DNA from: a virus
DNA: 16,178 bases
UHGV virus genome: UHGV-1561483
Direction: 5' to 3' (one strand)
In this document: positions 1,082 to 15,626 of the stretch, piece by piece
Position numbering within the stretch: the stretch's first letter is position 1
Layout of the letters: the number at the start of each line of letters is the position of its first letter
The notes under the pieces: model-generated
Databases searched by the model: none
The model's input: only the letters and a program-made list of their open reading frames with translations
Told to the model about the DNA's origin: nothing
Made by a program: the position numbers and the translations under genes

Positions 1082-1603
1082 ATGTTTATTTCAAGTGAAA
1101 GCGGTTTAATTCGTGTTGAATTTAAAAATGACATCTTTCTTATTCAAGGAGATGATATTATTAAAATGAGTTATGACGAAATCAAGAAAATTTGTAATGC
1201 TCTTGAAAATCATGGAAAGGTGAATGCTGTCATTGATATTGGCGATTTATGGGTGACACTTTATGAAGTATCCGAAGGATTTAACATTGAAGATGAAAAC
1301 AACATCTTAGCTATTGATAAAAGAAGCGATTTGTTTGATGTGTTAAAAGTTTATGAACAGTCAAACGGTGGAAGAAAAGCTGCATTGATTTATCAAAAAC
1401 CACATTCATGCGGAACTGCTTCAATCATTTCCAATATTGAAGGCGAAGTTGATACTTATATGTGTGTTTTAAAAGCTGGTGGTGACCGTCATCCGGATTT
1501 TATTTCTATTCGTCAAAACAATGGAGAAATTTCATTATCAAAATCAGAAGCTGAGGCTATGATTAAGTATTTAACAACCGTTACACCTTCAATGAAAGGA
1601 TAA
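1082..1603 (+). CDS. hypothetical protein, member B of a tandem paralog pair (173 aa)
   Basis: GAGGAAA (1074-1080) then ATG 1082. C-terminus ...SEAEAMIKYLTTVTPSMKG matches the C-terminus of the preceding gene. Confidence 0.65.
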   Translation: MFISSESGLIRVEFKNDIFLIQGDDIIKMSYDEIKKICNALENHGKVNAVIDIGDLWVTLYEVSEGFNIEDENNILAIDKRSDLFDVLKVYEQSNGGRKAALIYQKPHSCGTASIISNIEGEVDTYMCVLKAGGDRHPDFISIRQNNGEISLSKSEAEAMIKYLTTVTPSMKG

Positions 1604-1605
1604 TT

Positions 1606-2067
1606 ATGATTATTAATGAAAACTCTTGGCACTATAAATTATTCAAATTGTTTAACGATGAATGGCAACGACCTAAGACACTATGCGCATATTTTTGGTC
1701 TATTGCCATTCCTACATTTTTCGTTTCTATTTTTGGATGTGCTATACTCGTAGGGCTAACAATTATTTGTGCAGAAAGCCTACAACGTTGGCTTATTTTT
1801 GGTAGTTTATGGACTTTGCTTCCATCAGCATTTATACTTGCGATTTTGGTTGTTTTACTTATTATCGGTTCATTTGTTATTCCTGCACATTTGTGTGAAA
1901 AATATAAAGATTATAAATGGAAAAAGGATTATGCTTTACACGTAGAAAATATTGATAGGGCGTATAAAGGTTTACCTCCTATTCAACCCAAGAAATCGAT
2001 TATCGTTGAATTTTTAAAAGCTCGTAAAGCTAAAGTATGTCCTGTTATTGAATATAAGGCTGAATGA
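1606..2067 (+). CDS. predicted small membrane protein (153 aa, 2-3 hydrophobic helices)
   Basis: AAAGGA (1594-1599) then ATG 1606; long hydrophobic stretches (FWSIAIPTFFVSIFGCAILVGLTIICA, LLPSAFILAILVVLLIIGSFVIP). Confidence 0.6.
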   Translation: MIINENSWHYKLFKLFNDEWQRPKTLCAYFWSIAIPTFFVSIFGCAILVGLTIICAESLQRWLIFGSLWTLLPSAFILAILVVLLIIGSFVIPAHLCEKYKDYKWKKDYALHVENIDRAYKGLPPIQPKKSIIVEFLKARKAKVCPVIEYKAE

Positions 2068-3077
2068 TGAAAACAGTAATGAAAAGCTATTTTGGTAGTC
2101 ATCTTTATGGAACTTCTACCCCAGAATCTGATGTAGATTTTAAAGAAATCTTTGTTCCTCCTGCTCGCGATATTCTTATCGGAAATGTCAAAGAGCATAT
2201 GAGTAAAAACACTAACAACACATCATCTAAAAACACTAAAGATGATATTGACCATGAACTATACAGTCTTAAGTATTTCTTTAAATTAGCAGCAGATGGT
2301 GAAACCGTAGCATTGGATATGCTCCACACTCCACCTGAGCTAGTGGTTAAATCTGATTTACCTGATGTATGGAAATTTATCCAAGACAATCGTTCACGGT
2401 TTTATACAACTAACATGAAATCCTATTTAGGATATGTCCGCAAGCAAGCTTCTAAATACGGTGTCAAGGGTTCTCGTTTGGCCGCATTACGTGATGTATT
2501 GAAAGTAGTTAATCAAATCCCTGAGCAGTGGGTTGATTATCAAGAAGGAATTCCAGATCGTCTCCGACGTACGAAGGTAGAAGATATTAAACATCGTCTT
2601 CCAGAAAACGAGTTCTGTGAATGGGTGTTCCATAATCATGAGAAAACAGGCCCGCAAACGTTCTATACTGTGTTGGGTCGTAAATATCAGACAACGCTTT
2701 CTCTTATTGAGCTTAAGCAGTCTTTGAATAAACTTGATGCTGAATACGGCGAACGTGCTCGTAAAGCTGAAGCGAATGAGGGTATTGACTGGAAAGCTCT
2801 GAGTCATGCTTGTCGTGGTGGACTCCAATTGTTGGAAATTTACAAAACTGGTGACTTAGTTTATCCACTCCAAGATGCTCCATTTATTCTCGACGTGAAG
2901 CTGGGTAAGCATCCATTTAAAACAGTTCAAGAGTTTTTGGAAGATGTGGTCGATCAAGTAGAAGCAGCATCAATTGAAGCTTCTAAGAACGGTATGCAAC
3001 AAAAAGTAGACATGGGTTTCTGGGATGACTTCCTTGAGAGGGTGTATCTCGAAAACCATCGAAGTTATTATAAATGA
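2064..3077 (+). CDS. nucleotidyltransferase-fold protein (337 aa)
   Basis: N-terminal motif GSHLYGTSTPESDVDF (G-S-x10-D-x-D, nt about 2094-2141) typical of pol-beta-type/minimal nucleotidyltransferases, with a downstream acidic ALDMLH that could supply the third carboxylate. ATGATG start overlaps the upstream stop; followed by an intrinsic terminator. Confidence 0.6.
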   Translation: MMKTVMKSYFGSHLYGTSTPESDVDFKEIFVPPARDILIGNVKEHMSKNTNNTSSKNTKDDIDHELYSLKYFFKLAADGETVALDMLHTPPELVVKSDLPDVWKFIQDNRSRFYTTNMKSYLGYVRKQASKYGVKGSRLAALRDVLKVVNQIPEQWVDYQEGIPDRLRRTKVEDIKHRLPENEFCEWVFHNHEKTGPQTFYTVLGRKYQTTLSLIELKQSLNKLDAEYGERARKAEANEGIDWKALSHACRGGLQLLEIYKTGDLVYPLQDAPFILDVKLGKHPFKTVQEFLEDVVDQVEAASIEASKNGMQQKVDMGFWDDFLERVYLENHRSYYK

Positions 3078-3079
3078 TA

Positions 3080-3106
3080 GGGAGCCTTCGGGCTCCCTTT
3101 TTTTAT
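3080..3106 (+). terminator. Rho-independent terminator (GGGAGCC-TTCG-GGCTCCC + T7)
   Basis: Perfect 7-bp GC-rich stem with a UUCG tetraloop (3080-3097) followed directly by TTTTTTT (3098-3104). Confidence 0.85.
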
Positions 3107-3129
3107 TTCAAAAATTTTTTCACAAAACG

Positions 3130-3159
3130 GTTTACAAGCATAAAGCTTTATGGTACTAT
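3130..3159 (+). promoter_or_regulatory. T4-early-type sigma70 promoter (GTTTAC -35, 18-bp spacer, TGG-TACTAT -10)
   Basis: GTTTAC at 3130-3135, TACTAT at 3154-3159, A/T-rich upstream; same architecture as the 4568 and 15390 promoters. Confidence 0.65.
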
Positions 3160-3172
3160 ACAACTATCAACT
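3151..3172 (+). repeat. 22-bp exact direct repeat, copy 1 (TGGTACTATACAACTATCAACT)
   Basis: Identical 22-mer recurs at 4589-4610; covers the -10 and the start of the 5' UTR of two promoters. Confidence 0.9.
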
Positions 3173-3193
3173 GATACGGATTTGGAGAATAAA

Positions 3194-4162
3194 ATGAAAA
3201 CTGTAACTATCAATAAGGGTATCTACTTCGGTAAAGAAATCTCTGGAACTTTTGAGCTCTTAGGCGAATGGTTCCCAGATAATGCTCCGGTAGATGCACA
3301 AGGAGATGGTAAAGTTTTTGTTGAAATTGACGGTAAACGTCGCGGTGTTTGGGTTTACAAATCAGATATTTCATATGATGGTGTAAAAGTTGAAGAAGTT
3401 AAAGAATCGTATGAAGATATGAAAACCCGCATTAATAAAAGATTTAATGTTATGGGAATGATGACGAATGGTATTATTAATGGAAATATTCGTTCATTAA
3501 TTATCTCTGGCGCAGCAGGTATTGGTAAAACGTATTCTTTAGATAAAGCTTTAAATAAAGCAAATGATATTGGATACATTGAATATAAAAGCATTAATGG
3601 TAAAATCTCTGGTATTGGTCTTTATGAGCAGCTTTGGAATAATCGTGAAGAGAATTCTGTCCTTTTGATTGATGATGTGGATGTTTTCTCTGATATGGAC
3701 ATTCTTAATCTTCTAAAAGCTGCTCTGGACACTGGAGAGACCCGTAAAGTCTGCTGGAGCACTGCGTCTTCTTACTTAGAAGAAAAAGGCATTGAGCGTG
3801 AGTTTGAATTTAAAGGAACGATTGTTTTTATCACAAACGTTGACATTGACCGTGAATTAGACCGTGGTACTAAACTTGCTCCACACTTACAAGCATTAGT
3901 GTCCCGCTCGGTTTATTTAGATTTGGGCGTTCACACTAATGAAGAAATTATGGTCAGGGTTGAAGATGTTATTCTTTCAACTGACATGATGCAAAAGCGC
4001 GGTCTTTCTGATGAAGAAACTTATAAAGCATTATCATGGATGAAAGTTAATGTTAATCGTTTACGCAATGTTTCACTGCGTACTGCTCTTTATCTTGCTG
4101 ACTTTATTATGACCGACAAAAACGGTTGGGAAGAAATTGCTGAGGTTACTCTTCTGAAATAA
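3194..4162 (+). CDS. AAA+ ATPase-domain protein (322 aa)
   Basis: Walker A GAAGIGKT (nt 3509-3532), Walker B VLLIDDVDV (about 3661-3687), candidate sensor-1 IVFITN. ORF-track start at 3074 runs through the terminator and promoter, so the start was moved to ATG 3194 after GGAG. Confidence 0.7.
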   Translation: MKTVTINKGIYFGKEISGTFELLGEWFPDNAPVDAQGDGKVFVEIDGKRRGVWVYKSDISYDGVKVEEVKESYEDMKTRINKRFNVMGMMTNGIINGNIRSLIISGAAGIGKTYSLDKALNKANDIGYIEYKSINGKISGIGLYEQLWNNREENSVLLIDDVDVFSDMDILNLLKAALDTGETRKVCWSTASSYLEEKGIEREFEFKGTIVFITNVDIDRELDRGTKLAPHLQALVSRSVYLDLGVHTNEEIMVRVEDVILSTDMMQKRGLSDEETYKALSWMKVNVNRLRNVSLRTALYLADFIMTDKNGWEEIAEVTLLK

Positions 4163-4259
4163 TTCATAAGAGGACTTCTATGACAAAAGGCAGTTCAGAA
4201 ATAGATTATATGGACTGCCATTAAAAAGATGACTAGAATTAAACTGGTGAATGGAGGTA

Positions 4260-4565
4260 ATGATGTTATACTCAAAGGCTCGTGAAATTTACGAAACTAA
4301 AATTAAAGAAGCAGTATTTCAGTTCGCAACAACGATGCGATGGACAAATGATTGGGAGTATTCAAAAAATCATAAGAAGCCCATGGTGACAAGAAAGGCT
4401 CATATGTTAGTGTTAATAGACCGTGAGCAGATTAAAGCCCGAGAAGCCCTCCAGAATCATAAAAAGGCTGCCTTTGAATGGTTTATGGATAACACTGCTC
4501 CTGAGACTAAGAAAGCAGTGAGCGCATGGTTCAGTGGAAAAAATTGCGAAAGAAGTTTCTTTTAG
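4260..4565 (+). CDS. hypothetical protein (about 101 aa)
   Basis: GGAGG at 4253-4257; in-frame ATGs at 4251, 4260 and 4263, start ambiguous (4263 has the best spacing). Confidence 0.5.
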   Translation: MMLYSKAREIYETKIKEAVFQFATTMRWTNDWEYSKNHKKPMVTRKAHMLVLIDREQIKAREALQNHKKAAFEWFMDNTAPETKKAVSAWFSGKNCERSFF

Positions 4566-4567
4566 TG

Positions 4568-4597
4568 GTTTACAAGACTGTTCCTCTGTGGTACTAT
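4568..4597 (+). promoter_or_regulatory. T4-early-type sigma70 promoter
   Basis: GTTTAC 4568-4573, 18-bp spacer, TACTAT 4592-4597; near-identical to the promoter at 3130-3159. Confidence 0.65.
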
Positions 4598-4610
4598 ACA
4601 ACTATCAACT
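4589..4610 (+). repeat. 22-bp exact direct repeat, copy 2 (TGGTACTATACAACTATCAACT)
   Basis: Identical to 3151-3172; embedded in the promoter upstream of the 4626 gene. Confidence 0.9.
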
Positions 4611-4625
4611 ACGGAGGAACAGAAA

Positions 4626-5153
4626 ATGAACGCTAAAGATATTTTCAACTTGGTAAATTACAACGATGGTAAATTTAAATCTGAAGCACAAAGCAAGTTC
4701 TTTAACGACATCTCAATCGGAGGTGAAATTACTGTTGATGGAGGACAAATTTACAAATCCCGTTGGAATTGGATCGTTATTATTGATGAGATTGGTATTG
4801 TAGAAATTTACAAGAATACGAATAAAAATCGTGCATTACACTGGTCTCGTGATACTAACGAACAGTACAAAAAGGATAAAGCATCTAAATTATCTCGTGT
4901 AACTCAAGAAGATATTGAGTTCATCAAGAAAGATATTTTGATGTATGATAACTTAATTGCTGAAGAGCAAGCTGTTATTGATAAATTTGATGAGATTAAA
5001 GCTTCTCGTGAAATTCCTGATTTTATGAAAGAATCAGTAAATGAACGATACTCTCTCATTTCAGAGCGTATTGAAACTTACAAAAAGCAAAGAGCTGAAC
5101 GCCAAAATACTCTTCGGAAGTTTGAAGAACGGTTAAAGACGGTACTCGCATAA
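4626..5153 (+). CDS. hypothetical protein with charged helical C-terminus (175 aa)
   Basis: GGAGG (4613-4617) then ATG 4626; C-terminal third is rich in E/K/R and looks heptad-like. Confidence 0.65.
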   Translation: MNAKDIFNLVNYNDGKFKSEAQSKFFNDISIGGEITVDGGQIYKSRWNWIVIIDEIGIVEIYKNTNKNRALHWSRDTNEQYKKDKASKLSRVTQEDIEFIKKDILMYDNLIAEEQAVIDKFDEIKASREIPDFMKESVNERYSLISERIETYKKQRAERQNTLRKFEERLKTVLA

Positions 5154-5155
5154 CC

Positions 5156-5179
5156 GCTTTATACCAAGGATGGTATAAT
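5156..5179 (+). promoter_or_regulatory. candidate promoter, MotA-box-like GCTTTA + 12 bp + TATAAT (T4 middle-type), overlapped by an inverted repeat
   Basis: GCTTTA 5156-5161, TATAAT 5174-5179; inverted repeat ATACCA-AGGA-TGGTAT at 5161-5176. Confidence 0.45.
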
Positions 5180-5208
5180 GGTTCTAAGCCCTTTTAATTG
5201 AGATTATT

Positions 5209-5613
5209 ATGAAACAGTTGATAATTAAAAGATTGAATTTATTGATATGTTGTTTATGTATAGTAATTGCATATGGTTATTACGCAATTAATGATTATAT
5301 GCATTATAAAGATTATGATGTTACTGTAGTTAATACCATTACAGGAACACAAGGAAAGGGGTCTAGTTTATCGTTTATTGCTGTATATGAACTCAAAGAC
5401 GGTTATAGATTTAGCGAATATATTTCACCAGAGATGTATTCATCAATAGAAAAAGGCGATAATATTACTGTAAGTTTACGTCCTTTCGACGTAAAACAGA
5501 CATTGTTTGATAATATTGTTTGGTTCTTTGGAATGGTATTAGTTCAATCTGTGTGTGGTGCTTATATAGTCTTTTCCATCATATTCTGCGTATTTAGTAA
5601 AATTGAAAATTGA
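5209..5613 (+). CDS. predicted small membrane protein (134 aa)
   Basis: Hydrophobic segments at both ends (LNLLICCLCIVIAYGYYAI; IVWFFGMVLVQSVCGAYIVFSIIFCVF). Confidence 0.55.
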   Translation: MKQLIIKRLNLLICCLCIVIAYGYYAINDYMHYKDYDVTVVNTITGTQGKGSSLSFIAVYELKDGYRFSEYISPEMYSSIEKGDNITVSLRPFDVKQTLFDNIVWFFGMVLVQSVCGAYIVFSIIFCVFSKIEN

Positions 5614-5624
5614 GTGAGGAAAAT

Positions 5625-6512
5625 ATGTCAGTAGTAATTAATAATGTCAATGCAGTAATTAAATCTTTAGTTAATAAAAAATTGAATGAATGGACTGTAC
5701 TTCGTCGTGGAGAGCCAGATAAATTTTTTCATAGATTTAACCCAACTTTGGATTTGAATGTTATTGACAGAGATGTTCATGCTGAAATTTTAGATAAATT
5801 TAAAGTTGATATTGGGTTTGGATTAGATAAACATTTACAACGAACAAACGGGTCTGGAATGGGTTTATCTAATCGCATCATGAAAGCCCTTAATAAAATT
5901 GGAGCGTTGTCTCGTATTAATGCGAGTGAAATCCTTCGTAATTATAATAAAGGATATGACCTTTATGGTCGACTAATGCCAAAATTATCATTTGACCAAA
6001 TGATCGCAGATTTGTGGGAAAATCAACGACGATTATTAGCATTGGGAGCTCGATTAGCTAAAGGTCTAGATAAACAAATGATTTTTAAGACCAATAATAC
6101 AGAAGACCTTAAATGCTTTAAATTTAGTATTCGTGGCGATGATTATTACATCAGAGCTCGCTCCACAGATTATGTCAATATGGGCCATCATCTCTGTTTA
6201 GCTTTTGAAGTTTTAAAAGAAGCTGGAACATTAGAATATACGTCTGGTACTAAATGCCCGATTGGTTCAAATTGTATTTTGATTTATCGCCCGGATGAAT
6301 CCAGTTCAACTAAATTGCCTACGAAACCTGTACCAGTTCGTAGTAATGAAAAACATTCTGAACAAATTGATTATTTTAATAAGCAAATTGAAGAGCTGAA
6401 TATTTCTATTCAACAGTATGACGATGAAATTTTCAGACTATCTGGATTGAGTAGTAAAGCTAAATCTGAGCGTGAAAAGTTAATTAAAATTGTTGATTTA
6501 CTTAAATCTTAA
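5625..6512 (+). CDS. hypothetical protein, paralog family member 1 (295 aa; globular domain + Pro-rich linker + C-terminal coiled coil)
   Basis: ORF-track start 5610 is TTG; ATG 5625 follows GAGG. Internal motif LLALGARLAKGLD, linker PTKPVPV, heptad-like tail. Confidence 0.6.
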   Translation: MSVVINNVNAVIKSLVNKKLNEWTVLRRGEPDKFFHRFNPTLDLNVIDRDVHAEILDKFKVDIGFGLDKHLQRTNGSGMGLSNRIMKALNKIGALSRINASEILRNYNKGYDLYGRLMPKLSFDQMIADLWENQRRLLALGARLAKGLDKQMIFKTNNTEDLKCFKFSIRGDDYYIRARSTDYVNMGHHLCLAFEVLKEAGTLEYTSGTKCPIGSNCILIYRPDESSSTKLPTKPVPVRSNEKHSEQIDYFNKQIEELNISIQQYDDEIFRLSGLSSKAKSEREKLIKIVDLLKS

Positions 6513-6520
6513 GGAACACC

Positions 6521-7549
6521 ATGAAAACTCGTTCTCAAATTGAAGATATGGTTCGTAATGCCAGCTATACCCGTAATGTTATGACATTTTTGTGTGAAAA
6601 TAATTTAGACCCTGATAAAGTTAATCGTGTTATTCATCACTTTAAGTATACGAATAGCAGTGAATGGGTGCGTAATTTTAGTAAAGCGGGGTATATTACA
6701 CAAATGACTGCTCGTGAGCAGCTCACCGATTTCTGTAAAACTATTGATTATAAAAATCCTCTATTTGTTCAAGGCGTTGGTCAGAGTAAGGTCGATTTAT
6801 CAACAGGATTTTTTAATCCAAATCATTATCGTCTTGAATGGAGATTTATTGCTCTATTCCGTAAACAATTAAAGCAAATTTTGTCGACGGCTAGTCGATT
6901 AAAAGGTTCTGATATTAACTTAAAGAATCTGAAATTTGATGGTTATACTCTTCAGATGGAAGTAAGACCATTAAAAGAAAATAACAGAACTGCACGAATT
7001 AGCTTTAAGCCTAATACTAAAAATTCTCTTTCAATTTGTGAATGCCTTAAATCACAGTTGACAGAAGCATTTAAGTATATGGATGTTGTTGCTGCTGTTC
7101 AGTCTAAGATTTTACCTCGTTTTGAGCGAAATTGGGAACATACAACAACGTATGAACTTGATATGATCGTTTCATTTAAATATGAATTTTTGAGAAAGGA
7201 CGAAGTTACACAAGAGAAAAAGCAAGAAGTGCAAGATAACTTAAATTTAAATTTATCCAATTACTCATCAAACGATCCTAAATTTTGGATGTATAGTTCA
7301 GGTAATAAGGATGCATGGAAATTCAATAAAGTGAATTTTCTTCCTGTTGAAAATCCGAGTCTTAAACCTGTTGAAAAATGGCATGCAGATGCGATTGAGA
7401 AGTCTATCAAGGCAGTAGATGATGAACTCGTTAAAGCAACTAATGAAGTGCTAGAAGCTGAAAAGATGCTAGAAAAAGCTCAAGAAAAAGTCAAAAATCT
7501 CACGAAGCAACGTTCTAAACTGAACAATGCACTAAATGCACTGAACTAG
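6521..7549 (+). CDS. hypothetical protein, paralog family member 2 (342 aa)
   Basis: AAGGA (6511-6515) then ATG 6521. N-terminus MKTR..., internal motif LFRKQLKQILSTASRLKGSD, linker PVENPSLKPVEK, heptad-like C-terminal helix. Confidence 0.7.
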   Translation: MKTRSQIEDMVRNASYTRNVMTFLCENNLDPDKVNRVIHHFKYTNSSEWVRNFSKAGYITQMTAREQLTDFCKTIDYKNPLFVQGVGQSKVDLSTGFFNPNHYRLEWRFIALFRKQLKQILSTASRLKGSDINLKNLKFDGYTLQMEVRPLKENNRTARISFKPNTKNSLSICECLKSQLTEAFKYMDVVAAVQSKILPRFERNWEHTTTYELDMIVSFKYEFLRKDEVTQEKKQEVQDNLNLNLSNYSSNDPKFWMYSSGNKDAWKFNKVNFLPVENPSLKPVEKWHADAIEKSIKAVDDELVKATNEVLEAEKMLEKAQEKVKNLTKQRSKLNNALNALN

Positions 7550-7578
7550 TTTACTTTACCACAGGGATGTGGTATAAT
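7549..7578 (+). promoter_or_regulatory. candidate promoter (GTTTAC -35, 18-bp spacer, TGGTATAAT extended -10), overlapped by an inverted repeat
   Basis: GTTTAC 7549-7554, TATAAT 7573-7578; inverted repeat ACCACA-GGGA-TGTGGT at 7558-7573. Confidence 0.55.
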
Positions 7579-7606
7579 GTTCTTACTTTCTACTGAGGAG
7601 ATTAAT

Positions 7607-8608
7607 ATGACTCGTAACGAATATATCAAATCATTCAATAGCGTTATTGATGATAAAGCTATACCGATGTTTGGCCAAAATAGCGTTCTTTCTATTATCA
7701 ATCAATGGCTCAATAGTGTTGATGCAAGTATTGTTTCTTCTACTAAATTTATTCATGAAATTCGTAAAATTTCTAGCCGTGTAGATAAAGATGTTATCAA
7801 GAAAACCTTTAAAGAGTCTCGTCTTCTTTCATATTTGGTTAATCGGGATATTCTTGGTAATTTTGGGAAAGAAATTAAACGAACCAAAGATGTAGTAGGA
7901 TATAATTGGTTCGGTGATGTTAATTCTTATCATCTTAATAATAAAGAAGACCCTGAGAATATTTTTACTCGTCGTTGGATTAGTAATTTCAGACTTTTCA
8001 AAGGACAGATTCTAAAATCAGCTTCTAAATTATGTTATGGCGATTATCGTCAAATTCATCCTTTGGCTTCTGATATGATTATCATAAAAGAATATGAACT
8101 TGATAAAAATAAAGTATCTATTTTTGTGAATTATGGATTTTTTACACCAGAAACTAACCAAAAGAATATTAATAAATTTTTCTCAATTGCTAGCACTATA
8201 ACTCGTCAATTAGAGACCGCATTACTTTGTATGGAAACAGTAGAAAATATTCATACATATCCTTTTAAGAATATATGCGGATGGGAAGGATATAAAATTG
8301 TAATTAGTCTTCGTGAAGTGAAATGTGCTTATTCACCTACTGATAAAGAAATTTATCAACAAAAATGTGAGGAAATTGTGAATACTCCTAAAGAAGAAAC
8401 TACCCTTGAGGAACTAATGGATAATCTTGATGATTCGCCTGAACCGGTAGAAATTCGTCCAGAAGTTATTGCACTAGAAAAAGCTTATAAAGAAGTTCTA
8501 GAAATTTCTAATAAAGCACAGAAAGAATATGAGCAGGCTAAAAGGATTTGGGAAGAATCTGTTAATCGTCTTGATCGTCTGGAACAAGCTTTACAGTTAA
8601 TTAAGTAA
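7607..8608 (+). CDS. hypothetical protein, paralog family member 3 (333 aa)
   Basis: ORF-track start 7577 sits inside the TATAAT; ATG 7607 follows GAGGAG (7596-7601). N-terminus MTRNEYIKSFNS resembles member 4; internal motif LFKGQILKSASKLCYGD; linker SPEPVEIRPEV; C-terminal coiled coil. Confidence 0.7.
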   Translation: MTRNEYIKSFNSVIDDKAIPMFGQNSVLSIINQWLNSVDASIVSSTKFIHEIRKISSRVDKDVIKKTFKESRLLSYLVNRDILGNFGKEIKRTKDVVGYNWFGDVNSYHLNNKEDPENIFTRRWISNFRLFKGQILKSASKLCYGDYRQIHPLASDMIIIKEYELDKNKVSIFVNYGFFTPETNQKNINKFFSIASTITRQLETALLCMETVENIHTYPFKNICGWEGYKIVISLREVKCAYSPTDKEIYQQKCEEIVNTPKEETTLEELMDNLDDSPEPVEIRPEVIALEKAYKEVLEISNKAQKEYEQAKRIWEESVNRLDRLEQALQLIK

Positions 8609-8660
8609 TTTAAAGCCAAGGATGGCTCGGAGTATAAACTATTAACCAAGTGAGAAGAAC

Positions 8661-9587
8661 ATGAAAACTCGTAAACATTATATTGATTATTTTGACAGTC
8701 TTATTACTAAACATCGTAATTATCAGATAGGACACAGAGCAGTAATCAATAATATTCTTCGTGATTTTTTAGACTATATTGGATGGGAAAACCATATTTG
8801 TAAAGATACACAAAATGCGTATTCACATTCTCTTGGTTCTTTGCTCGAGTGGTTCAAACGTTCCCGATTACTATCTTCTGTGATAGCTGTTAATAATGTT
8901 AAAAAATTTATGTATCCAAGCTACATTGAGACTAATGTATCAAATGCTAGTGTTGTTACATTTAATATTATTAACGACGTGAAAAGAACTTATTTAGAAG
9001 AATGGTTTTCTAAAGATAGTAAAGAAAAATTTGCCAGTGAGTTTTCACACGAATTTAATAATAATGTGAATATGCTTTTTAAGCATTCTCGTAGACTGTT
9101 TTGTCATGGCGATGACCGTACTATTAATGTAAATGTAAAAGATTGGGTTACGGCTAAATTCATTCCATCATCACAGAATGGACCATTTGAATTGTCAATT
9201 ATTGTTTGTGCTCCGCATGAAATATATAAAAATATTCCATATATGAAACCATGTGAAGCTAATAAACATAATAAAACGATTCGTTCTTTGACTTATAATC
9301 TTCGTACGTTATTGTCTAAAATGGACGTAGTTGAATCCTTTGATGATAATACGAATTATGGTCTTTCACTATTTGAAACTAAAGTTGTTATTAAGTTAAA
9401 GGACCCTAGTAAATTTAAACCTACGCCAAAGCCCAATCGTGGGAATGATACTATGAAAGAAGAACGCGAATATCTCAGTGCTCGTTTGATTGAAGTTGAA
9501 AAACAGATTGAAGAGCATACTAAAGTTATTAAGGCTTTAACTGCCAAAGCAAATGGTTTACGTGATGCTATTGAGGTACTGAAATGA
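8661..9587 (+). CDS. hypothetical protein, paralog family member 4 (308 aa)
   Basis: N-terminus MKTRKHYIDYFDS, internal motif LFKHSRRLFCHGDD, linker PSKFKPTPKPN, heptad-like C-terminal helix. Weak RBS. Confidence 0.65.
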   Translation: MKTRKHYIDYFDSLITKHRNYQIGHRAVINNILRDFLDYIGWENHICKDTQNAYSHSLGSLLEWFKRSRLLSSVIAVNNVKKFMYPSYIETNVSNASVVTFNIINDVKRTYLEEWFSKDSKEKFASEFSHEFNNNVNMLFKHSRRLFCHGDDRTINVNVKDWVTAKFIPSSQNGPFELSIIVCAPHEIYKNIPYMKPCEANKHNKTIRSLTYNLRTLLSKMDVVESFDDNTNYGLSLFETKVVIKLKDPSKFKPTPKPNRGNDTMKEEREYLSARLIEVEKQIEEHTKVIKALTAKANGLRDAIEVLK

Positions 9588-11857: not shown

Positions 11858-11861
11858 AAAT

Positions 11862-11893
11862 AATAAATACCCTTATCTATTCAAGGTAAGGGT
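11862..11893 (+). promoter_or_regulatory. gene 49 leader: late-promoter-like AATAAATA followed by a hairpin that pairs the Shine-Dalgarno of gene 49
   Basis: AATAAATA 11862-11869 (7/8 to the T4 late TATAAATA). Stem ACCCTTA (11869-11875) / TAAGGGT (11887-11893) with an 11-nt loop; the 3' arm contains the AAGGG SD located 7 nt before ATG 11900. Confidence 0.5.
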
Positions 11894-11899
11894 TTTATT

Positions 11900-12373
11900 A
11901 TGTTATTGACTGGCAAATTATACAAAGAAGAAAAACAGAAATTTTATAATGCACAAAACGGTAAATGCTTAATTTGCCAACGAGAACTAAATCCTGATGT
12001 TCAAGCTAATCACCTTGACCATGACCATGAATTAAATGGACCAAAAGCAGGAAAGGTACGTGGATTGCTCTGTAATCTCTGTAATGCTGCAGAAGGTCAA
12101 ATGAAGCATAAATTCAATCGTTCTGGCTTAAAGGGACAAGGTGTTGATTATCTTGAATGGCTAGAAAATTTACTTACTTATTTAAAATCCGATTACACCC
12201 AAAATAATATTCACCCTAACTTCGTTGGAGATAAATCAAAGGAATTTTCTCGTTTAGGAAAAGAGGAAATGATGGCTGAGATGCTTCAAAGAGGATTTGA
12301 ATATAATGAATCTGACACTAAAACACAATTAATAGCTTCATTTAAGAAGCAGCTTAGAAAGAGTTTAAAATGA
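11900..12373 (+). CDS. 49: endonuclease VII (Holliday-junction resolving / packaging endonuclease)
   Basis: 157-aa ORF; N-terminus MLLTGKLYKEEKQKF recognised; Zn ligands Cys23, Cys26, Cys58, Cys61 and catalytic Asp40/His41/Asn62/Glu65 all at the positions known for T4 endo VII. Confidence 0.92.
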   Translation: MLLTGKLYKEEKQKFYNAQNGKCLICQRELNPDVQANHLDHDHELNGPKAGKVRGLLCNLCNAAEGQMKHKFNRSGLKGQGVDYLEWLENLLTYLKSDYTQNNIHPNFVGDKSKEFSRLGKEEMMAEMLQRGFEYNESDTKTQLIASFKKQLRKSLK

Positions 12374-15292: not shown

Positions 15293-15295
15293 GAC

Positions 15296-15316
15296 GGCCC
15301 TCTGGGCCTTTCTTTC
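15296..15316 (+). terminator. probable Rho-independent terminator (GGCCC-TCT-GGGCC + T-rich tail)
   Basis: GC-rich 5-bp stem at 15296-15308 followed by TTTCTTTCT; lies between the redoxin gene and the next promoter. Confidence 0.55.
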
Positions 15317-15389
15317 TCACATTCTGTATATTACCATTCTAAGCTATCGTTCCCTTCTTATCGTTCCCTAAAATAATTTTCACAAAGTT

Positions 15390-15419
15390 GTTTACAAGAA
15401 GTTCAAACTGTGGTATTAT
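15390..15419 (+). promoter_or_regulatory. T4-early-type sigma70 promoter
   Basis: GTTTAC 15390-15395, 18-bp spacer, TGG-TATTAT 15411-15419; upstream TTTTCACAAA element shared with the 3130 promoter. Confidence 0.65.
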
Positions 15420-15449
15420 TAACATATGAATTGCCTTTGAGGAATTGAT

Positions 15450-15626
15450 ATGGTTGATAAAGAGATTAAAAGGGATCAGTATTATCGTGTTAACGGACAT
15501 ATTGTTATTGTTACAGCAGTAGATGATCTAGATGTTCATTATACTGTACTTAAATGGAACAAACGCATGATTTGTGATCGTGCTGTATTTAGTTCAGTTG
15601 CTAAGGAAATTAAACTCCATGGGTAA
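15450..15626 (+). CDS. possible small ORF (58 aa), below the ORF-track size cutoff
   Basis: ATG 15450 about 7 nt after GAGG and about 30 nt downstream of the promoter -10; ends TAA 15624-15626, overlapping the next start. Confidence 0.4.
   Translation: MVDKEIKRDQYYRVNGHIVIVTAVDDLDVHYTVLKWNKRMICDRAVFSSVAKEIKLHG

Follow-up and report, generated by a model that had tools for sequence, protein, structure and literature searches.

T4-type phages contain intergenic cassettes that combine a promoter with a stem-loop, the PeSLs (promoter-early stem-loops) and their middle-promoter version, the PmSLs (Arbiol et al. 2010, PMC2839356; Comeau et al. 2014, PMC4122927). Such a cassette runs from stop codon through promoter, stem-loop and Shine-Dalgarno sequence to start codon, its stem-loop often lies between the -35 and -10 elements, and its stem can contain G-T pairs. 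PeSLs are found in hyperplastic regions, next to non-essential ORFs, and one cassette can recur at different loci; in the T4 relative PST they are reported, degraded ones included, at ~43-51 kb, which is the nrdC region. Other T4 hairpins mask a ribosome-binding site on read-through RNA only, with the promoter inside the structure, as at soc, 49 and I-TevI. The same arrangement is described for gene e (PMC3014915). A GGA triplet in a hairpin loop is found in turn in the sites of CsrA/RsmE, for which the published consensus sequences are CANGGANG and RUACARGGAUGU, the RsmE form being (A/U)CANGGANG(U/A).

We analysed a window of 16,178 nucleotides from the virus genome UHGV-1561483, a T4-like phage with ~96% identity to T4, spanning nrdC.8 to nrdC.3. 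Three intergenic sites in this window are read here, with a probability of roughly 0.55, as PeSL-type composite cassettes in which the ~17-bp spacer of a phage promoter also encodes a short stem-loop. They resemble the PeSLs in the features given above. The published stems, however, are poly-G/poly-C (RB49) or, placed upstream of the promoter, AGNA/TCNT (PST/T4) and come without a described conserved loop, whereas here it is the loop, C[A-N-GGA-Y]G, that is conserved, on short stems of variable sequence. The three cassettes are thus a variant of the known PeSL architecture, distinguished by this loop. That promoter/stem-loop cassettes had already been described in T4-type phages was not recognised in the first-pass annotation of this DNA.

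Promoters and hairpins of the nrdC region

The first-pass annotation, made from the sequence alone, had noted three intergenic dyads with a GGA-containing centre, two of them overlapping a TATAAT; the dyads and both overlaps were found in place (Table 1). The dyads had been taken for the same element. This applies to sites 1 and 3, which share the exact 10-mer CCAAGGATGG, and less well to site 2, which has a symmetric 2+2 nt insertion (CCA-CA-GGGA-TG-TGG).

Table 1. Coordinates of promoter elements and hairpins in the window.
Feature	Position	Strand	Basis or remark
UUCG terminator	3081-3098		C(UUCG)G example
Site 1 outer helix extending the hairpin	5152-5156 paired with 5179-5183	+	RNA fold
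MotA-box core GCTTTA of PnrdC.7	5156-5161	+	12 bp upstream of -10; identical to T4
Site 1 hairpin, full stem TTATACCA/TGGTATAA around AGGA	5159-5178; loop 5167-5170	+	sequence and RNA fold
Site 1 dyad ATACCA-AGGA-TGGTAT	5161-5176	+	sequence
-10 TATAAT of PnrdC.7	5174-5179	+	overlaps site 1; expected start ~5186
nrdC.5 stop codon TAG	7547-7549	+	overlaps nrdC.4 -35 region
-35 region GTTTACT of nrdC.4 early promoter	7549-7555	+	minus_35 / 'early promoter 50.0' in T4 record U76612
Site 2 hairpin TACCACA-GGGA-TGTGGTA, full stem	7557-7574; loop 7564-7567	+	sequence and RNA fold
Site 2 dyad ACCACA-GGGA-TGTGGT	7558-7573	+	sequence
-10 TATAAT of nrdC.4 early promoter	7573-7578	+	overlaps site 2; TGTGG just upstream is an extended -10; expected start ~7585
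Second hairpin, read-through RNA only, directly adjoining site 2	7575-7604	+	7575-7585 paired with 7594-7604; fold of 7546-7612
Degenerate -35 TTTAAA of site 3	8609-8614	+	GTTTAC at same position in other genera
Site 3 hairpin AGCCA-AGGA-TGGCT	8614-8627; loop 8619-8622	+	sequence and RNA fold
GGAG, then -10-like TATAAA	8629-8632, 8633-8638	+	18-bp spacer from TTTAAA

Site 1 is PnrdC.7, a mapped middle promoter dependent on MotA, which is listed with start site 53325 among the identified middle promoters of T4 (PMC2988021 Table 1). In T4 its -10 occupies 53337-53332 and the mapped start lies 7 nt past it; given the corresponding start expected in the window, the PnrdC.7 transcript itself does not contain the hairpin. 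The site 1 hairpin folds at -10.9 kcal/mol (5150-5190), is unchanged across 12 Tequatrovirus sequences and is kept in Mosigvirus with a different stem (ACCC-AAGGAC-GGGT), as well as in Dhakavirus and Gaprivervirus. Site 2 is the T4 early promoter of nrdC.4, of sigma70 type and annotated in U76612, which a promoter scan recovers as TTTACT-17-TATAAT with TG. Its hairpin (-9.1 kcal/mol) reads CCACA-AGGA-TGTGG in T4 itself. Among 13 Tequatrovirus sequences the polymorphisms inside this hairpin are confined to the loop N and to an A/G directly 5' of CCACA that turns an A-U pair into G·U; one strain has a further difference two bases upstream of the stem. A nearly identical copy of its 30-bp core recurs in T4 at the rIIA.1 promoter and, in a Jiaodavirus, upstream of cef.

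Judged by alignment, site 3 is a degenerate version of an early promoter that other genera retain intact, its counterparts in Mosigvirus, Dhakavirus and Gaprivervirus having the form GTTTAC-XY-CCAAGGAYGG-Y'X'-GGAG-TATAAT. In the window the dyad ends 5 nt before TATAAA, with GGAG between them, and the hairpin folds at -6.8 kcal/mol. The site 3 hairpin is kept in 11 of 13 Tequatrovirus sequences; in one strain a G-to-A change breaks the stem (C·A mismatch), which counts against the cassette reading. At each of the three sites the start, mapped or expected, comes after the whole hairpin, which is consequently carried by read-through RNA only. A stem-loop presenting a GGA loop on read-through transcripts was one of the possibilities raised at first pass, and it is the one that the evidence favours.

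Selection on the hairpin

In the T4 genome (168,903 bp, both strands) CCARGGATGG, for which a genome-wide search had been proposed, occurs only at the two intergenic sites 1 and 3, ~0.1 being expected by an estimate from base composition. The relaxed pattern CCA(N0-2)RGGATG(N0-2)G gives 6 matches: 4 in promoter or intergenic positions (the early promoter of rIIA.1 and sites 1-3) and 2 in coding sequence. Restricted to the window, the count of the 10-mer is not significant (2 matches versus 0.61 expected; at least 2 in 23 of 200 shuffles). CCACAAGGA occurs 5 times in T4, 3 of them at equal offset from the GTTTAC of early promoters. The earlier remark that the dyad exceeds what a promoter needs is borne out, since only one of 56 mapped T4 middle promoters, PnrdC.7, has this hairpin, and among ~40 regex-predicted sigma70-type sites in T4 it is found only at the nrdC.4 and rIIA.1 promoters.

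Covariation of the outer stem bases is seen both among T4-like genera and in unrelated phage contigs (AGCC/GGCT, AACC/GGTT, ATCC/GGAT, TCGCC/GGCGA). In the GTTTAC promoters of T4-like genera given above, XY/Y'X' is AT/AT, AA/TT or TT/AG, and it is AG/CT at T4 site 3; complementary flanks are found in only ~6% of ~45 unrelated database matches to the same core. The pattern TTGAC-N-CCAAGGAYGG-N-TATAAT in unrelated phage contigs has a spacer of 16-18 bp in 13/13 matches (47% by chance), and in most of these the stem is lengthened by differing sequences (TAGCCCA/TGGGCTA, TCGCCA/TGGCGA, ACTGCCA/TGGCGGT). In a fixed-register test on 88 distinct promoter-context sites, Watson-Crick pairs numbered 60, 55, 53 and 46 at the four positions outside the closing C-G pair, against shuffle means of 26, 23, 22 and 29 (p <= 2e-4 each) and 11-34 pairs in slid registers, and all four pair types were present; many copies are kin by descent or cassette duplication, and the independent covariation events are well below the sequence count. 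In stems of at least 4 bp the internal non-Watson-Crick pairs comprise 18 G·T and 3 A·C, and such stems accompany the promoter-plus-core pattern in 19/64 viral versus 9/116 bacterial matches (Fisher p = 1.9e-4). The hairpin is thus under selection, and with a strand asymmetry.

The register of the hairpin relative to the -10 shifts by up to ~6 bp, and the GGA ranges from ~-24 to ~-16 relative to the start, which argues against a contact with RNA polymerase. Taken together, outer stem covariation, the preference for G·T over A·C and the shifting register suggest, at slightly better than even odds, that the dyad is selected as a single-stranded hairpin of the sense strand and not as a duplex DNA element. 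We infer with similar, limited confidence that RNA is its functional form; tolerance of G·T would also fit a hairpin formed by a single strand of the DNA. The z-scores of the single hairpins are weak (-2.35, -1.40 and -0.77 for sites 1, 2 and 3). Selection of GGA over other loops may be a candidate reading, the GGA having been held fixed in all database searches. Among 71 spacer hairpins not triggered by the motif a GGA loop was present in 5 only, and a purine-triplet control in metagenomes, a small and underpowered sample, gave 1/8 for GGA and 12/110 for the others.

Other explanations of the dyad

The stem-loop might act as an attenuator, terminator or 3'-end protector that halts or slows polymerases coming from upstream or shields upstream mRNA from 3' exonucleases, with a loop that is irrelevant and inherited with the cassette. 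Such a role has been proposed for PeSL stem-loops and was demonstrated for one of them, from RB49, in a lacZ read-through assay (PMC2839356). A lenient terminator scan flags site 2 (7-bp stem, then TAATGTTCTT), and spacer dyads with other loops occur at other promoters of the window, such as CATAAAGCTTTATG at the nrdC.10 promoter, and beside GGA hairpins in the same foreign contigs. However, these are short stems rich in A/U, sites 1 and 3 have no U-tract and are unlikely to terminate, which sets them apart from PeSLs, and in the other-genus form GGAG intervenes between stem and UAUAAU. Moreover, T4-like genera keep the loop AAGGA[TC] while stem bases vary, and ~ten promoters of one contig (L470) keep A-N-GGA-C while stems covary, which suggests that constraint is stronger on the loop than on the stem; we consider this explanation rather unlikely. 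Processing by RegB/S1, in which the hairpin, through its loop GGAU, and the GGAG next to it would be RegB sites whose cleavage inactivates or uncouples read-through early mRNA, appears improbable. RegB cuts GGAG/U in early-gene intergenic regions, and does so efficiently alone if the GGA is unpaired and the fourth nucleotide constrained (PMC3014915), a geometry that CCA-AGGA-UGG offers along with an A/U-rich 3' side. At site 3, GGAGUAUAAAC fits 5/7 trailing positions of the strong-site consensus GGAGRAYARAA (PMC3014915), and the GGAG between hairpin and -10, conserved in the Mosigvirus, Dhakavirus and Gaprivervirus promoters, is a possible RegB target. In contrast, most known strong sites are Shine-Dalgarno sequences followed by A-rich tails, secondary structure is reported to protect against RegB (PMC3014915), and the hairpin also occurs in phage contigs unrelated to T4, some with a GGAC loop in place of GGAG/U, a loop that several T4-like copies have as well. 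Published RegB mapping of the nrdC region was not found in the literature examined.

There is also a small chance that the dyad itself has no function and reflects promoter consensus and common ancestry, through tandem duplication or PeSL-type recombination, with quasipalindrome templated mutation perfecting the palindromes. An extended T4 promoter consensus, as considered at first pass, does explain the right arm (TGG/TGTGG is the TGn extended -10, after which comes the -10 itself) and leaves the complementary left arm unexplained. The site 2 core shared with the rIIA.1 and cef promoters fits mobile cassettes (PMC2839356), nrdC.3 and nrdC.4 are distant paralogues, and the window-level motif statistics are weak. 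Against this stand the compensatory changes that yield several different stems, unrelated contigs included, the excess over bacterial promoter-like sites with the same core, and the G·T versus A·C asymmetry, which is unexpected from duplex-level processes. In addition, the 10-mer is intact where the proteins are down to <=24% identity, which implies purifying selection or gene conversion. The operator also envisaged at first pass, here taken as a double-stranded site at which a dimeric phage or host protein would repress the promoter, found no support and is highly improbable. The place between -35 and -10 is classical for an operator, T4-like phages conserve the inner half-sites CCA/TGG, and the mechanism of T4 early-promoter shut-off is incompletely understood. 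Yet the arms covary and the inner ones differ in other phages (GCAC/GTGC, GGGC/GCCC, GGAC/GTCC), the most conserved part is the asymmetric centre, the G·T/A·C asymmetry speaks against a duplex site, the position varies relative to both -10 and -35, and unrelated phages have the hairpin. In T4 DNA the conserved C positions are occupied by glucosylated hydroxymethylcytosine, which also counts against an operator.

The loop on read-through RNA

If the sites are PeSL-type cassettes acting through RNA, transcripts begun at an upstream promoter and reading through the intergenic region would carry the stem-loop and those from the hairpin-bearing promoter would not, so that it would mark read-through mRNA. 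The unpaired GGA of the loop could then be bound or cut by a GGA-reading factor. Tentatively, host CsrA is the most likely reader; T4 RegB/S1, to whose requirements the loop sequence also conforms, is an alternative, and with either factor read-through and promoter-initiated RNA would differ in how the downstream gene is handled. As in CsrA/RsmE sites, a short hairpin with C-G and A-U closing carries the GGA in its loop. Site 2 contains an exact ACARGGAUGU, its ACA-G-GGA-UGU agreeing with the CsrA SELEX consensus at 10/12 positions, and sites 1 and 3 fit CANGGANG 8/8. Hairpins of E. coli CsrB (ACACCA-GGA-TGGTGT, CTCCA-GGA-TGGAG) are one loop nucleotide away from those of the phage. The phage candidates differ in that they occur one per intergenic region, not as a multi-site leader or sponge, and in the C and G that flank CANGGANG where the RsmE consensus has A/U. 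We know of no precedent for a CsrA-type site inside a promoter spacer. CsrA might form a bridge between the hairpin and the GGA in the Shine-Dalgarno sequence further downstream, which is less likely at sites 1 and 3 because their weak Shine-Dalgarno sequences (GAGA, GAGAAG) contain no GGA.

Short intergenic T4 hairpins overlapping promoters are also known with a C(UUCG)G tetraloop, in or beside which lie the MotA boxes of T4 P43, P39 and P47. Conservation of that tetraloop is owed to its exceptional thermodynamic stability, whereas AGGA is no special tetraloop, and only the GGGA variant in the window, not AGGA, fits GNRA. Like the T4 hairpins that mask ribosome-binding sites, the GGA hairpins are present on upstream-initiated RNA only, with the promoter start inside or beyond the structure. 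Unlike them, they lie wholly in the spacer, unpaired with the Shine-Dalgarno sequence, so that an effect on translation would need a trans-acting factor. The window itself has two masking hairpins. A weaker one, adjoining site 2, covers the nrdC.4 Shine-Dalgarno GAGGAG, with its left arm at or upstream of the expected start. The clear example, which the differential handling proposed here would parallel, is at the neighbouring nrdC.8 promoter, where promoter-initiated RNA is unstructured and read-through RNA forms a 15-bp hairpin masking the Shine-Dalgarno sequence (-25.4 kcal/mol, z -6.45).

GGA-loop hairpins in three nrdC promoters

The three inverted repeats reported upstream of nrdC.7, nrdC.4 and nrdC.3 (sites 1, 2 and 3) were found exactly where the first-pass annotation had placed them. 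The surrounding region shares about 96% identity with 48.8-53.9 kb of phage T4 (minus strand), and 698 phage records match it. The description of the three as the same element holds for sites 1 and 3, which share the 10-mer CCAAGGATGG, but not fully for site 2, which carries the core with a symmetric insertion; in T4 the centre of site 2 is also AGGA. Site 1 is the MotA-dependent middle promoter PnrdC.7, with GCTTTA 12 bp 5' of TATAAT and a start mapped in T4 at 53325, 7 nt past the -10. Site 2 corresponds to the early promoter annotated 5' of nrdC.4 in the T4 record U76612, and it was recovered by the consensus scan with an extended -10. Site 3 is a degenerate TTTAAA-18 bp-TATAAA. Its counterparts in Mosigvirus, Dhakavirus and Gaprivervirus have the intact form GTTTAC-XY-CCAAGGAYGG-Y'X'-GGAG-TATAAT, which makes site 3 a decayed copy in which the hairpin and the GGAG survive. 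The individual hairpins are of modest thermodynamic stability in fold predictions, with AGGA, GGGA and AGGA as predicted loops at sites 1, 2 and 3, and no Rfam family was found at E <= 1 except one chance ribozyme match.

Features of the nrdC region discussed in the text (window coordinates)
Feature	Position	Strand	Remark
nrdC.8	4626-5153	+	
nrdC.7	5209-5613	+	
nrdC.6	5625-6512	+	
nrdC.5	6521-7549	+	
nrdC.4	7607-8608	+	
nrdC.3	8661-9587	+	
Site 1 hairpin	5159-5178		ATACCA-AGGA-TGGTAT at 5161-5176
Site 2 hairpin	7557-7574		ACCACA-GGGA-TGTGGT at 7558-7573
Site 3 hairpin	8614-8627		AGCCA-AGGA-TGGCT
GGAG beside site 3	8629-8632		
nrdC.8 early promoter	4569-4597		TTTACA-17-TACTAT, within 4566-4632
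nrdC.8 promoter spacer segment	4578-4592		
nrdC.8 Shine-Dalgarno region	4608-4622		
-10/start region after site 2	7575-7585		left arm of the second hairpin
nrdC.4 Shine-Dalgarno region	7594-7604		right arm of the second hairpin
Stretch alignable with Mosigvirus	5108-5183		nrdC.8 end and PnrdC.7 promoter with hairpin
Tandem direct repeat	7526-7543		AATGCACT(A)AATGCACT, nrdC.5 3' end just before site 2
PeSL-like layout after nrdC.11	3078-3196		
UUCG-tetraloop terminator	3081-3098		GGGAGCC-TTCG-GGCTCCC and T-run
Terminator-like hairpin 5' of gene 49	11858-11902		ACCCTTA...TAAGGGT, then TTTTATT
Terminator-like hairpin with early promoter	15293-15452		GGCCC-tct-GGGCC, then TTTCTTTCT, then GTTTAC-N18-TATTAT

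The nrdC cluster consists of accessory genes. Comparison of the window's proteins with one another makes nrdC.3 a distant paralogue of nrdC.4 (E = 0.001, 24% identity across 270 residues), and nrdC.6 and nrdC.3 have a C-terminal stretch in common. According to a published report (PMC9391042), nrdC.5 counteracts the Dsr1 defence system, and the genes from nrdC.6 to nrdC.3 (5625-9587) may be diverged members of an anti-defence family, with a separate promoter cassette for each gene. A recent tandem duplication is an unlikely origin of the shared 10-mer because identity among the nrdC.3-nrdC.6 proteins does not exceed 24%. An IMG/VR search with the nrdC.4 protein returned 5 loci only.

Covariation of the stems in T4-like and unrelated phages

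The first-pass annotation had proposed a search for CCARGGATGG to test its enrichment at promoters. The excess of the 10-mer was not significant within the window alone, so the case was made genome-wide and across phages. The whole T4 genome contains CCARGGATGG at two intergenic places only, sites 1 and 3, and four of the six T4 occurrences of a relaxed pattern are in promoter or intergenic DNA. CCACAAGGA occurs five times, three of them in early promoters at an identical offset from GTTTAC. Hairpins of 8 bp with an RGGA loop are also present inside T4 coding sequence on the minus strand, at 142,873 in nrdA.1 (TGGCAGCC-GGGA-GGCTGCCA) and at 62,144 in vs.1 (ATTTTCTA-AGGA-TGGAAAAT; fetched loci L005 and L004), which shows that GGA-loop hairpins also occur outside promoters.

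Comparison of T4-like genera shows complementary changes in the two bases on either side of the core (AT/AT, AA/TT and TT/AG, with AG/CT in T4); among about 45 unrelated database matches to the core, the flanks are complementary about as often as chance predicts. Scanning viral contigs for TTGAC-N-CCAAGGAYGG-N-TATAAT gave 13 sites, all with a 16-18 bp spacer, A/T-rich DNA on the 5' side and a Shine-Dalgarno sequence and start codon on the 3' side; most of these have stems lengthened by unrelated sequences. With the core relaxed to CANGGATG we obtained 64 distinct sites, among which each of the four bases is found at N and of which 19 have stems of at least 4 bp, compared with 9 of 116 for the identical pattern in bacterial genomes (p = 1.9e-4). 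We then counted covariation by script in a fixed register, a MAFFT alignment of 98 promoter sites keyed on the -35 and -10 boxes having broken the register of the arms. Among 88 distinct promoter-context sites, Watson-Crick pairing was found in 46-60 at the four positions past the closing C-G, against 22-29 in column shuffles (p <= 2e-4 each) and 11-34 in slid registers; because many of the sequences are related, the independent events are fewer than these counts imply. Non-canonical pairs within the stems are G·T in 18 cases and A·C in 3. The observation is real and non-random.

Polymorphism among close relatives was also recorded. In Tequatrovirus the site 1 hairpin is invariant, the site 2 hairpin differs solely in its outermost pair (A-U to G·U) and in the loop N, and the site 3 hairpin is broken in one strain. 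The only stretch of a 3.6-kb query that blastn could align between the window and Mosigvirus (e.g. OL960577, locus L012 1501-1577) is 76 bp long, at 87% identity, and takes in the last part of nrdC.8 together with the PnrdC.7 promoter and hairpin. In the Klebsiella Jiaodaviruses only 62 bp could be aligned, namely the site 2 promoter and leader, which lie 5' of cef there.

The same arrangement was seen in contigs that are unrelated to T4. The densest set among the loci seen is in L470 (IMGVR_UViG_3300044568_002742, a 71-kb uncultured phage), where about ten promoters in 7 kb (1500-6800) have the form TTGAC-ATAGCAC-A[G/U/A]GGAC-GTGCTAT-AAT, with compensatory (ATAGCAC/GTGCTAT to ATAACAC/GTGTTAT) and G·U variants of the stem and with the loop C[A-N-GGA-Y]G retained. 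Three further contigs of 51 kb, 363 kb and 102 kb (loci L249 at 1091-1120 and 2365-2394, L043/L447 and L090/L445) each have two or three sigma70-consensus promoters with CA-N-GGA-UG spacer hairpins, and the spacer hairpins of neighbouring promoters there have unrelated loops. BLAST against the phage collection gave no identification for L470, L090 or L249.

Promoter consensus, operators and stem-loop cassettes

The first-pass annotation had allowed that the extended T4 promoter consensus might explain the element. It does account for the right arms (TGG, TGTGG, then TATA), which coincide with the TGn extended -10 and the -10. The complementary left arm and the loop are not explained in this way: of the 56 mapped T4 middle promoters extracted, 55 lack them, as do nearly all predicted sigma70-type T4 promoters. 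An operator bound as double-stranded DNA, also suggested by the dyad symmetry, would be expected to have conserved half-sites at a fixed position. We found instead that the arms covary, that the position of the hairpin relative to the -10 shifts by about 6 bp between cassette types and that G·T pairs predominate in the sense strand, and the operator is disfavoured. Readings of CCA-N4-TGG as a CRP-like, GntR-like or restriction site found no support in the analysis and were dropped. Taken together, the covariation, the G·T bias, the polymorphism and the variable register point to a hairpin formed by the single-stranded sense sequence, in the simplest case RNA, rather than to a duplex operator or an RNA polymerase contact.

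The architecture itself is known from the promoter-early stem-loops (PeSLs) of T4-type phages. Arbiol et al. (PMC2839356) described PeSLs in RB49 and phi1, drew G-T pairs in them, showed recombination and proposed that they attenuate upstream transcription. Comeau et al. (PMC4122927) added T4/PST and a middle-promoter version to the class; the degraded PeSLs that they reported in PST, at about 43-51 kb, fall in the nrdC region. [quoted passage not shown] The same core is found at T4 rIIA.1, T4 ndd.6 and Jiaodavirus cef. The degenerate promoter of site 3 fits the degraded category. The difference from the published PeSLs lies in the part that is conserved: here the stems vary and T4-like genera share the loop C[A-N-GGA-Y]G; the sites are a PeSL variant with a conserved GGA loop. 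The reuse of the cassette at non-homologous loci is the only hint of a role in recombination or mini-circles.

Attenuation in the plain sense is possible, chiefly at site 2, which alone passes a lenient terminator scan. Sites 1 and 3 have no U-tract and lack the G+C-rich stem directly followed by one that defines an intrinsic terminator, and the true terminators of the window look different from the three sites. A classic PeSL layout is found after nrdC.11, where a UUCG-tetraloop terminator is followed by an A/T-rich stretch and an early promoter (GTTTAC...TACTAT) whose spacer contains a perfect 14-bp palindrome, CATAAAGCTTTATG. Two other terminator-like hairpins are listed in the table, together with a tandem direct repeat that the terminator scan flagged as a minus-strand hairpin.

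Read-through RNA and candidate readers of the loop

All three hairpins lie 5' of the mapped or expected starts, so that only RNA begun further upstream carries them. No intrinsic terminator was found between the upstream promoters and the three sites, except the lenient match at site 2. Of the readings offered at first, a stem-loop presenting a GGA loop on read-through transcripts is the one favoured by the covariation, the G·T bias and this position. Two promoters of this stretch have spacers or start regions that would pair directly with a ribosome binding site. At the nrdC.8 early promoter a spacer segment is complementary to the Shine-Dalgarno region; in predicted folds the read-through RNA forms a 15-bp hairpin (-25.4 kcal/mol, z -6.45) and the promoter-initiated RNA is unstructured, making this a predicted read-through-specific translational mask. 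A second, weaker hairpin abuts site 2, where the -10/start region pairs with the nrdC.4 Shine-Dalgarno region and the left arm would be missing in promoter-initiated RNA. Spacer-encoded marking of read-through RNA would thus be recurrent in this stretch. The GGA hairpins, by comparison, would mark such RNA via a trans-acting factor and not by direct pairing.

The candidates for this factor that we infer from the loop are host CsrA and the T4 endoribonuclease RegB with ribosomal protein S1. CsrA sites are expected to have a second GGA 10-63 nt away, typically the Shine-Dalgarno sequence. Here the GGA is within the predicted hairpin loop, and the loop matches the published CsrA/RsmE consensus, RUACARGGAUGU or (A/U)CANGGANG(U/A). 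Site 2 matches ACAGGGAUGU at 10 of 12 positions, with ACARGGAUGU exact, and sites 1 and 3 match all 8 core positions of CAAGGAUG with C/G, not A/U, at the flanks. The CsrA-binding hairpins of E. coli CsrB, as read from the genome (ACACCA-GGA-TGGTGT, CTCCA-GGA-TGGAG and similar), are one nucleotide away from those of the phage. A second GGA is present about 30 nt downstream of site 2 (GAGGAG) and about 10 nt downstream of site 3 (GGAG; the Shine-Dalgarno sequence GAGAAG has no GGA), and the Shine-Dalgarno sequence of site 1 is GAGA. Literature searches on CsrA and T4 yielded no direct link between the two and no binding or CLIP data for CsrA on T4 RNA.

RegB cuts GGAG/U in early-mRNA intergenic regions and works best on an unpaired GGA with a constrained fourth base (PMC3014915). 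The loops read GGAU with the U in the closing pair, and the GGAG beside site 3 is a further candidate for cleavage. Its sequence GGAGUAUAAAC agrees with the A-rich 3' context GGAGRAYARAA at 5 of the 7 trailing positions, a fit not seen at sites 1 and 2. A host factor is favoured over RegB because the hairpin occurs in contigs unrelated to T4 and in GGAC variants. As to the specificity for GGA, every pattern search had GGA fixed, GGA loops were not enriched among the non-motif-triggered promoters of the fetched loci (5/71), and a control with purine-triplet loops in metagenomes was underpowered.

We give a chance of roughly one in four to the general reading that in many lytic phages, whether T4-like or unrelated to T4, the only free 17 bp of internal promoters house a hairpin with high affinity for host CsrA or another GGA reader; read-through mRNA would be bound and thereby silenced, stabilised or made a CsrA sponge, while promoter-made mRNA would escape. 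If true, this would be a general protein-mediated discrimination of read-through from promoter-initiated transcripts, and promoter spacers, usually deemed free sequence, would hold a second, RNA-level message in compact phage genomes. Spacers of this kind would then not be neutral, which is relevant to annotation pipelines and to users in synthetic biology. For nrdC.7 and nrdC.4, which sit in an accessory cluster with nrdC.5, it would add a testable layer in which transcripts of one gene from an upstream early promoter and from its own promoter are handled differently. Should CsrA be the reader, the host Csr system would be linked to gene expression in T4, for the first time to our knowledge, and also in many uncultured phages.

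A family of early promoters sharing GGTACTATACAACTATCAACTA 3' of the -10 was also recorded, at T4 70.6 kb (70,650-70,700; locus L004 ~20,650-20,700, minus strand), at T4 167.06 kb and at the nrdC.8 (4569-4603) and nrdC.10 promoters of the window. The spacer of the T4 70.6-kb copy contains ATCCTTG, the reverse complement of CAAGGAT.
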